A stretch of DNA of 64,000 bases from Escherichia phage OLB145, in the sequence record MH992123.1. The stretch is one strand, 5' to 3'. This document shows positions 27,480-28,333 of this stretch, piece after piece (position 1 is the first letter of the stretch; each line of letters starts with the position of its first letter). The translations under genes were made by a program, and so were the position numbers. The notes beneath the pieces are model-generated. The model ran no database searches and was not told where the DNA came from. It saw only the letters and a list, made by a program, of their open reading frames with translations.

Positions 27480-27851
27480 ATGAACCGTATTACTGAAGAA
27501 CATATTGATAGCATCATTGAAGGTGCTTACTACTTCAATATGGCTAAAGCTGTAGAGAATGAAGCAGTTCTGATTCCTGAAGACCATTTAAAAGCATTGA
27601 GTACAACTACTGTTTGTGCACTGGTTCTTTCTAATGGGTTCACTATTACTGGTAAATCTGCCTGTGTTGACCCTAATACCTTCAATGAGGAGTTAGGTAA
27701 GAAATATGCTTATGAACAGGCCATTGATAAGGTATGGGAATTGGAAGGCTATCTGCTTAAGCAAAACCTGTATGAGAAAGCTCAGAGCCAGGAAATGCTA
27801 AAAGGATTCCTGCAAGATGACAACTGTGAAGGTGGGGGCTGTAAAATCTAA
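27480..27851 (+). CDS. conserved phage protein of unknown function
   Basis: 123 aa with AGGAAG SD; 'VCALVLSNGFTITGKSACVDPNTFNEELGKKYAYEQAIDKVWELEGYLL' looks like a conserved phage family I cannot name with confidence; stop overlaps next ATG (TAATG). Confidence 0.55.
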   Translation: MNRITEEHIDSIIEGAYYFNMAKAVENEAVLIPEDHLKALSTTTVCALVLSNGFTITGKSACVDPNTFNEELGKKYAYEQAIDKVWELEGYLLKQNLYEKAQSQEMLKGFLQDDNCEGGGCKI

Positions 27852-28333
27852 TGGAAATTAAAGTTCACTTTACTAATTACATCGGAACCAAATGTGTAAA
27901 TGGTTTCCCGATGAACAAGGCTGACTACTGCAAACTTCGTGGTTGGGATGTACCTGCTAATGAAGACCCGTTAGAAGAGGGTTACTTAGTAGAGTACCCC
28001 GATTCTAAACCTAACCATGAGCAATTCCGTGGTTATATTAGCTGGTCACCTAAAGCTGCATTTGAAGGGGCATACTGTGATGTAGACAAAGGCTGCACGT
28101 TTGGCCACGCAGTAGAGCTTATGAAATCAGGTTTTAGAATGTCCCGTAAAGGCTGGAATGGAAAAGGAATGTATATCACATTGGTATCCGGTGAAAACTG
28201 GGCTATGGATAAGCATGAAAATACCGTATGCATGAAACAGGATTGGCTGGGTATTAAAACCGCTGACAATGAATTTATGCCCTGGGTTCCATCTCAATCA
28301 GATGTATTAGCAGAAGATTGGGTACTAGCTTAA
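27851..28333 (+). CDS. DUF2829-like (Tad2-like) domain protein with N-terminal Cys-containing extension
   Basis: C-terminal half 'FGHAVELMKSGFRMSRKGWNGKGMYITL...FMPWVPSQSDVLAEDWVL' matches the RKGWNG...PW..SQ.D.LAEDW pattern I associate with DUF2829; about 80-aa N-terminal extension. Confidence 0.5.
   Translation: MEIKVHFTNYIGTKCVNGFPMNKADYCKLRGWDVPANEDPLEEGYLVEYPDSKPNHEQFRGYISWSPKAAFEGAYCDVDKGCTFGHAVELMKSGFRMSRKGWNGKGMYITLVSGENWAMDKHENTVCMKQDWLGIKTADNEFMPWVPSQSDVLAEDWVLA

Follow-up and report, generated by a model that had tools for sequence, protein, structure and literature searches.

The window analyzed here is a 64,000-nt stretch of Escherichia phage OLB145 DNA (MH992123.1), an Enquatrovirus (N4-type podovirus) sequence that is 97–99% identical at the DNA level to N4 and its relatives. 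We examined a pair of genes on its plus strand, around which approximately 1.1 kb of sequence shares 99.3% identity with Escherichia phage AlfredRasser and 97.1% with phage N4. The upstream gene (27480..27851) encodes a 123-aa protein and the downstream gene (27851..28333) a 160-aa, two-domain protein, and they are the counterparts of N4 gp48 and gp49, which in the N4 record are immediately followed by the convergently oriented gene for the virion RNA polymerase. This gene occupies 28371..38891 on the minus strand of the window and encodes 3,506 aa. The stop codon of gp48 (TAA, 27849–27851) and the start codon of gp49 (ATG, 27851–27853) have base 27851 in common, resulting in a TAATG junction. 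An initial annotation of this DNA had proposed a two-gene operon at 27480–28333, and its coordinates, the plus-strand location of both ORFs and the TAATG coupling were all confirmed.

The cassette is bracketed by two terminator-like hairpins. One, on the plus strand at 27425..27454 (12-bp stem with 6 G-C pairs, followed by a T-run), closes the upstream tRNA region and delimits the gene pair on its 5’ side; the other (28345..28362) is bidirectional, lies between gp49 and the virion RNA polymerase gene and is common to both. In total, 5 terminator-like sites were found in 1.6 kb, compared with 1.4 expected from shuffled sequence. A Shine-Dalgarno sequence, AGGA (27470..27473, plus strand), was recognized from the sequence 6 nt ahead of the gp48 start codon. 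A scan restricted to sigma-70 promoters returned no plus-strand promoter for the gp48-gp49 cassette. As the initial annotation had stated, the pair is located next to a tRNA region: four tRNA genes (Asn, Ser, Thr and Pro) lie at 26299–26978, and an Rfam scan of 26000–28500 yielded, above threshold, these four tRNAs and nothing else. The tRNA-Ser among them (26379–26468) is of the long-arm type. The stretch of approximately 450 nt from tRNA-Pro to the upstream terminator (26979–27424) contains no ORF of ≥ 40 aa and no Rfam match, and within the part of the N4 record EF056009 that was examined, no feature is listed between gp47 and gp48.

In a 2026 preprint, the Bondy-Denomy laboratory described a region of N4-like phages, termed the “anti-signalling hotspot”, that lies between the genes for primase and virion RNA polymerase and contains Tad2, Tad3, Acb4, Sequestin, the RuvC-like Bes1 and Bes2. 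As defined there, the hotspot is bounded on its right-hand side by the virion RNA polymerase gene, a boundary that is conserved, and the location of the OLB145 gene pair fits this already described region. Bes1 was reported in the same preprint to shield an N4-like phage of Pseudomonas against both Thoeris and CBASS. The counterpart of N4 gp46 in the window (24953..25510, plus strand) matched phrog_159, a RuvC-like resolvase family (E = 4e-40), and is 36% identical to gp74 of Pectobacterium phage CB1, its counterpart there; searches of Pfam and of PDB sequences gave no match. This gene probably corresponds to Bes1 of the hotspot. The neighboring gp47 (25513–25968, 151 aa) has a very acidic, Glu-rich C-terminal half, and its matches were confined to PHROG families without an assigned function; it occupies the position that Bes2 has in Pseudomonas relatives.

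We then assigned the protein encoded by the upstream gene. Residues 4–97 of gp48 matched the entire profile (positions 1–82 of 82) of PF13876, the “N4 Gp49/Sf6 gene 66 family”, at a score of 119.3 bits (cut-off, 27; E = 1e-34), and gp48 also matched the solved SPO1 Acb4 (PDB 9E4W, E = 6.6e-4). Work by Chang et al. identified PF13876 with Acb4, whose members are tetramers that sequester the cyclic dinucleotides of CBASS, and their Table S3 includes the N4 protein A0MZD7 among 1,331 Acb4 homologues; in our own comparison, gp48 of the window differs from A0MZD7 at 4 of 123 positions (96.7% identity). Doherty et al. named N4gp48 “Acb4” and found that its knock-down restored N4 plating on Panoptes cells and that its expression alone triggered Panoptes toxicity, so that it is both necessary and sufficient for Panoptes activation. 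All 8 Acb4 homologues tested bind 3’3’-cGAMP, and those from phages of Gram-negative hosts also bind 3’3’-cAA (3’3’-c-di-AMP). In a pairwise alignment with the SPO1 protein, F48, F62, N63, I66 and V56 correspond to the same or similar residues in gp48 (F54, F68, N69, L72 and C62), whereas K36, E49, Y57, T70 and K81 are changed (to T42, T55, V63, Y76 and E87). The pocket is thus mixed: gp48 retains the adenine pocket together with the stacking phenylalanine, while the guanine-reading K36 and E49 of SPO1 Acb4 are replaced by T42 and T55. This pattern, as judged from the alignment, would fit the broader cAA/cGAMP binding of the Gram-negative homologues. Also unlike SPO1 Acb4, gp48 continues past the Acb4 domain into a 26-residue C-terminal tail (residues 98–123, 27771–27848) that ends in CEGGGCKI; a CxGGGC ending occurs in 35 of the 1,331 listed Acb4 homologues, and the examples shown come from the enterobacterial N4-like phages N4, PMBT57, PhAPEC5/7 and Klebsiella KP8. 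The initial annotation had described gp48 as a conserved 123-aa partner of the downstream gene. Its length was confirmed, but gp48 is an independent, already characterized cyclic-dinucleotide sponge and not an accessory subunit.

The C-terminal half of gp49 had been proposed to be a DUF2829 (Tad2-like) domain, and profile, fold and ligand-contact residues all supported this assignment. The protein encoded in the window is identical to N4 gp49 at 159 of 160 residues. It matched PF11195 (Tad2-like, formerly DUF2829) at a score of 84.4 bits (cut-off, 25; E = 8e-24) over residues 83–159 (28097..28327, plus strand), covering profile positions 2–72 of 73, and this half of the protein also matched the sequences of solved Tad2 proteins (E ~1e-15). 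An AlphaFold2 model of the whole chain had a mean pLDDT of 89.4 and a pTM of 0.71. When compared with SPO1 Tad2 chains (PDB 8SME–8SMG) by Foldseek, the model matched with a probability of 1.0, a TM-score of 0.79–0.86 normalized to SPO1 Tad2 and a sequence identity of 39–45%. In SPO1 Tad2, the residues that contact 1’’-3’ gcADPR or ordered waters are W25, N26, I63, T65, D67, H71, W73, S76, T78 and D79. Nine of these ten are the same or conservatively replaced in gp49 (W102, N103, I135, T137, D139, W145, S148, S150 and D151), several of them within its GWNG (101–104) and PWVPSQSD (144–151) ligand motifs; the sole change is H71, which is M143 in gp49.

The Tad2 half was further compared with the subtype that binds cyclic dinucleotides. 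In HgmTad2 and SptTad2, an insertion of 35–41 residues between beta2 and beta5 forms a cyclic-dinucleotide pocket, and the insertion is 24 residues long in SPO1 Tad2. In gp49 it comprises only ~19 residues (113–131, between strands 108–112 and 132–136), short of the long insertion that marks the HgmTad2/SptTad2 subtype. Because nine of the ten contacts are kept and the insertion is short, we expect, on these sequence features, that the Tad2 domain of gp49 would sequester gcADPR and would lack an additional pocket of the HgmTad2/SptTad2 kind. A different ligand for the Tad2 half, which had been suggested on account of the fusion and the partner gene, is not indicated, since the gcADPR pocket is conserved. 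A literature search found no test of N4 gp49, and among the Tad2 proteins that Hadary et al. mark as tested in their Table S2, none has the motif of the N-terminal domain described below. Unlike gp49, all Tad2 proteins studied for structure or function are devoid of such a 75-residue N-terminal domain.

PF11195 begins at residue 83 of gp49, in agreement with the N-terminal extension of about 80 aa that had been noted. We therefore refer to residues 6–80 (27866..28090, plus strand) as the N-domain. Structure prediction, the check that the initial annotation had recommended for the extension, returned a confident fold (pLDDT 95.9) of four strands and two helices in the order beta-beta-alpha-beta-beta-alpha. 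The N-domain matched no Pfam or NCBIfam entry, even at E = 10, and no PDB sequence, either as a single sequence or as a profile; a fold search against the PDB produced weak small-barrel matches only, and PHROGs places the domain only in families of unknown function. The domain is strongly conserved. Full-length coverage was obtained for all of the best 120 gp49 homologues, and 23 positions of the N-domain are invariant or nearly so among gp49 homologues. In the best 150 of 2,817 representatives, 32 of 74 positions are ≥ 85% identical, a level of conservation that matches that of the Tad2 ligand motifs, and the mean net charge of the domain is acidic (−3.3). The extension had been described as Cys-containing, but C15, C27, C76 and C82 are not conserved among homologues, so this feature carries no functional meaning. 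A zinc-binding or disulfide role of the extension was discarded, none of the four cysteines being conserved.

Two further identities were tried for the N-domain and rejected. Sequestin (PF21825) gave no Pfam match at E values up to 10, and the N-domain is predicted to be mostly beta whereas Sequestin is all-helical. The OB-fold of phage L Dec (PDB 6E3C) aligned with an hhalign probability of 0.5%; Dec-like OB-folds had been removed from sponge data sets by other authors. Sequestin (crAss001_48) is nonetheless comparable with the N-domain in size class and in its habit of fusing to Tad2 and Acb4, and it was found through such fusion evidence. The two have no sequence relationship and are often present on one protein.

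Having delimited the N-domain, we further explored its distribution. A search with a profile of the N-domain alone, run over clusters at 50% identity, identified 2,817 cluster representatives, of which 1,323 had E ≤ 1e-10; in these proteins the domain is placed at either end of the chain or inside it. The Pfam partners in the best 150 proteins were Tad2 (47), PF21825 (Sequestin; 40), Acb4 (14) and the Acb2/Tad1 hairpin (3), followed by WDGH, AP2 and HNH with one each. This tally rests on Pfam counts in place of BLAST clustering: clustering the non-N-domain parts of the 150 proteins by BLAST left the partner families unseparated, as multi-domain chains link them. Three-domain proteins occur in the orders N-Sequestin-Tad2, Acb4-N-Sequestin, N-Sequestin-Acb4 and N-Acb2/Tad1-Sequestin. 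Fusions to RyR-Tad and to Lockin were also found, which together with Tad2, Sequestin, Acb4 and Acb2/Tad1 gives six sponge families in all. The N-domain is present in 123 phage records; among isolated phages, Kapi1_043 is an N-Tad2 protein and gp007 of Clostridium phage CP51 an N-Acb4 protein. In published lists, its motif occurs in at least 102 Tad2 homologues, 37 of 1,331 Acb4 homologues, at least 94 homologues of Sequestin and 2 of Lockin. Stand-alone N-domain genes exist as well, e.g., a 79-aa gene inside a phage head module, and the stand-alone fraction is uncertain in that some short proteins of this kind resemble truncated or frameshifted fusions. These data show that the N-domain is an autonomous, widespread and mobile domain. 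The fusion is not peculiar to gp49, given this spread over many sponge families; that the extension brings an added function, as had been suggested, is plausible.

The one member of the N-domain family with experimental data is in RyR-Tad, gp68 of Pectobacterium phage CB1. Residues 3–66 of gp68 are homologous to the N-domain profile (hhalign probability 96.2%, E = 2e-9, 64 columns), and a BFVD fold search with the N-domain found the RyR-domain protein of Yersinia phage TG1 (TM-score 0.78 normalized to the query). In the RyR-Tad crystal, the N-domain is a strand-swapped dimer that contributes to dimerization, and the ligand is bound in the C-terminal domain only. Residues 1–86 of gp68 alone showed no activity against type I Thoeris, in an assay that covered this one defense system only. 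The gp68 domain keeps 13 of the 23 conserved N-domain positions, mostly hydrophobic ones and the SWSP core, and lacks G12, R30, W32, P35, E38, E48, D51, N55, G61 and Y75 of the canonical domain. Because 10 of the 23 conserved positions are missing, the protein used in the negative assay is a divergent one that does not have the conserved polar site. RyR-Tad and gp49 are thus alike in having homologous N-domains joined to a gcADPR sponge in the hotspot of N4-like phages; in RyR-Tad, however, the partner is a ryanodine-receptor-like helical domain and not Tad2.

To assess how often the two sponge genes of the cassette occur together, we surveyed 80 unrelated IMG/VR contigs encoding an N-domain-Tad2 protein 38–50% identical to gp49. 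An ORF of the Acb4 family was fused or directly adjacent to the N-domain-Tad2 gene in 19 of the 80 contigs (13 upstream, 5 downstream and 1 in the same reading frame), and lay within 3 kb in 3 more. Several signal-binding modules in one chain or operon are also known from Acb4-Tad2 (phage Pm86), Acb4-Sequestin (phage Ab09) and Sequestin-Tad2, and in these fusions, as in the cassette, CBASS and Thoeris would be blocked together. Acb4 and Tad2 of OLB145 differ from them in being encoded by separate, translationally coupled genes, and the module joined to Tad2 in gp49 is not a recognized sponge.

Taken together, we interpret the locus, with a probability of about 0.8, as an N4 hotspot cassette that encodes two sponges, Acb4 (gp48) and Tad2 (gp49), with the N-domain as an extra module. 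In this model the pair would be the last cassette of the hotspot, a single short transcription unit between two hairpin terminators, and its two translationally coupled small proteins would deplete two distinct classes of second messengers of bacterial immunity, one class per protein. The Acb4 protein would act as a tetramer that sequesters CBASS cyclic dinucleotides, as others have shown for the family and, through Panoptes activation, for N4 gp48. The Tad2 domain of gp49 would likewise form a tetramer and sequester the Thoeris signal gcADPR (3’cADPR) in a pocket lined by W102/N103 and W145/D151; tetramer formation and ligand binding by gp49 are here inferred from homology to Tad2, a homotetramer whose pockets lie at protomer interfaces, and the short beta2-beta5 insertion would leave it without a cyclic-dinucleotide pocket. 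The N-terminal 75 residues would constitute a separate mobile domain that phages have joined to six or more sponge families; it most likely dimerizes, like its relative in the RyR-Tad crystal. Its polar and aromatic residues K14, R30, W32, E38, E48, D51, N55, Y62 and Y75 may form a site for a further ligand or partner, which would widen the range of defenses blocked, an extension of the model that rests on inference only.

Our best guess for the N-domain is a further ligand-binding, dimer-forming module. Such an autonomous module is favored because the domain is joined to six unrelated sponge partners in any order, occurs alone and is highly conserved, and because Sequestin provides a precedent, having been discovered by the same fusion argument. 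The negative gp68 result speaks against this reading, as does the acidic net charge, which is unlike most nucleotide pockets. A more far-reaching possibility is that the N-domain represents a new and very widespread counter-defense family, either a seventh signal sponge or an inhibitor of a component common to signaling defenses; we put this forward tentatively, as possible but short of an even chance. Such a family could have escaped notice, since Pfam has no entry for it and it is usually found attached to known sponges.

The N-domain could instead be only a structural helper, a dimerization or cross-linking module that stabilizes the sponge or raises its valency without a ligand or target of its own. 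The strand-swapped dimer and the lack of anti-Thoeris activity of the RyR-Tad N-domain alone would be explained in this way, as would the linker of only ~3 residues between N-domain and Tad2 in gp49 and the whole-chain pTM of 0.71. Tad2, Acb4, Sequestin, Acb2 and Lockin all oligomerize unaided, however, the N-domain is found at either end or in the middle of chains and also alone, and it has many invariant polar residues, beyond the needs of a simple scaffold, ten conserved positions being absent from the gp68 member that was assayed. We consider a purely structural role unlikely on this evidence. Alternatively, the N-domain might be a protein-binding inhibitor that docks, through a Tudor/SH3-like small barrel, onto a host defense protein or RNA polymerase; Tad3–Tad6, which bind the Thoeris TIR protein ThsB, offer a model for such an activity, and we regard this reading of the domain as unlikely.

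A further reading concerns gp49 as a whole, since the GenBank labels of some homologues would make it an anti-CRISPR protein of the AcrIIA7 type. AcrIIA7 entries do match the Tad2 domain of gp49, and two phage records label the gp49 homologue ‘anti-CRISPR protein’. When AcrIIA7 (HgmTad2) was re-tested in vitro and in vivo, however, it did not inhibit Cas9 and acted as a sponge for gcADPR and cyclic dinucleotides, and an anti-CRISPR function of gp49 is accordingly highly improbable.

The gene pair itself adds little to current knowledge, as N4 Acb4 is published, Tad2 is well studied and the hotspot is already on record. The interest lies in the N-domain, which has no name or family model and is joined almost only to immune-signal sponges; this breadth and near-exclusive association with sponges are not set out in the literature examined. 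If the N-domain binds a signal or a defense protein, many phage “single sponges” would be bifunctional, and assays that used only short versions of Tad2 or Acb4 would have missed part of the activity. Phage N4 and E. coli make up an easy system in which the N-domain can be tested.

Several additional features were observed among the N-domain proteins. In one of them (P0187, 354 aa), an N-domain-Tad2 protein, Tad2 is split (residues 76–99 and 264–353) by an insert with HNH_3 and AP2 matches, which looks like a homing endonuclease within a sponge gene. About 40 of the best 150 proteins contain an extra segment of 36–158 residues with no Pfam match, and one has a WDGH domain (PF25311); by the logic of fusion, the unmatched segments are candidates for further counter-defense domains. 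Outside N4-like phages, N-domain genes were found at typical moron positions (4001–4240 in L086, 2501–2965 in L004 and 3001–3522 in L003). These sites included head-morphogenesis modules, either by the P22-type coat gene or, in Clostridium phage CP51, after the minor capsid gene, and in phage Kapi1 the N-domain gene lies between the lysis and terminase genes.
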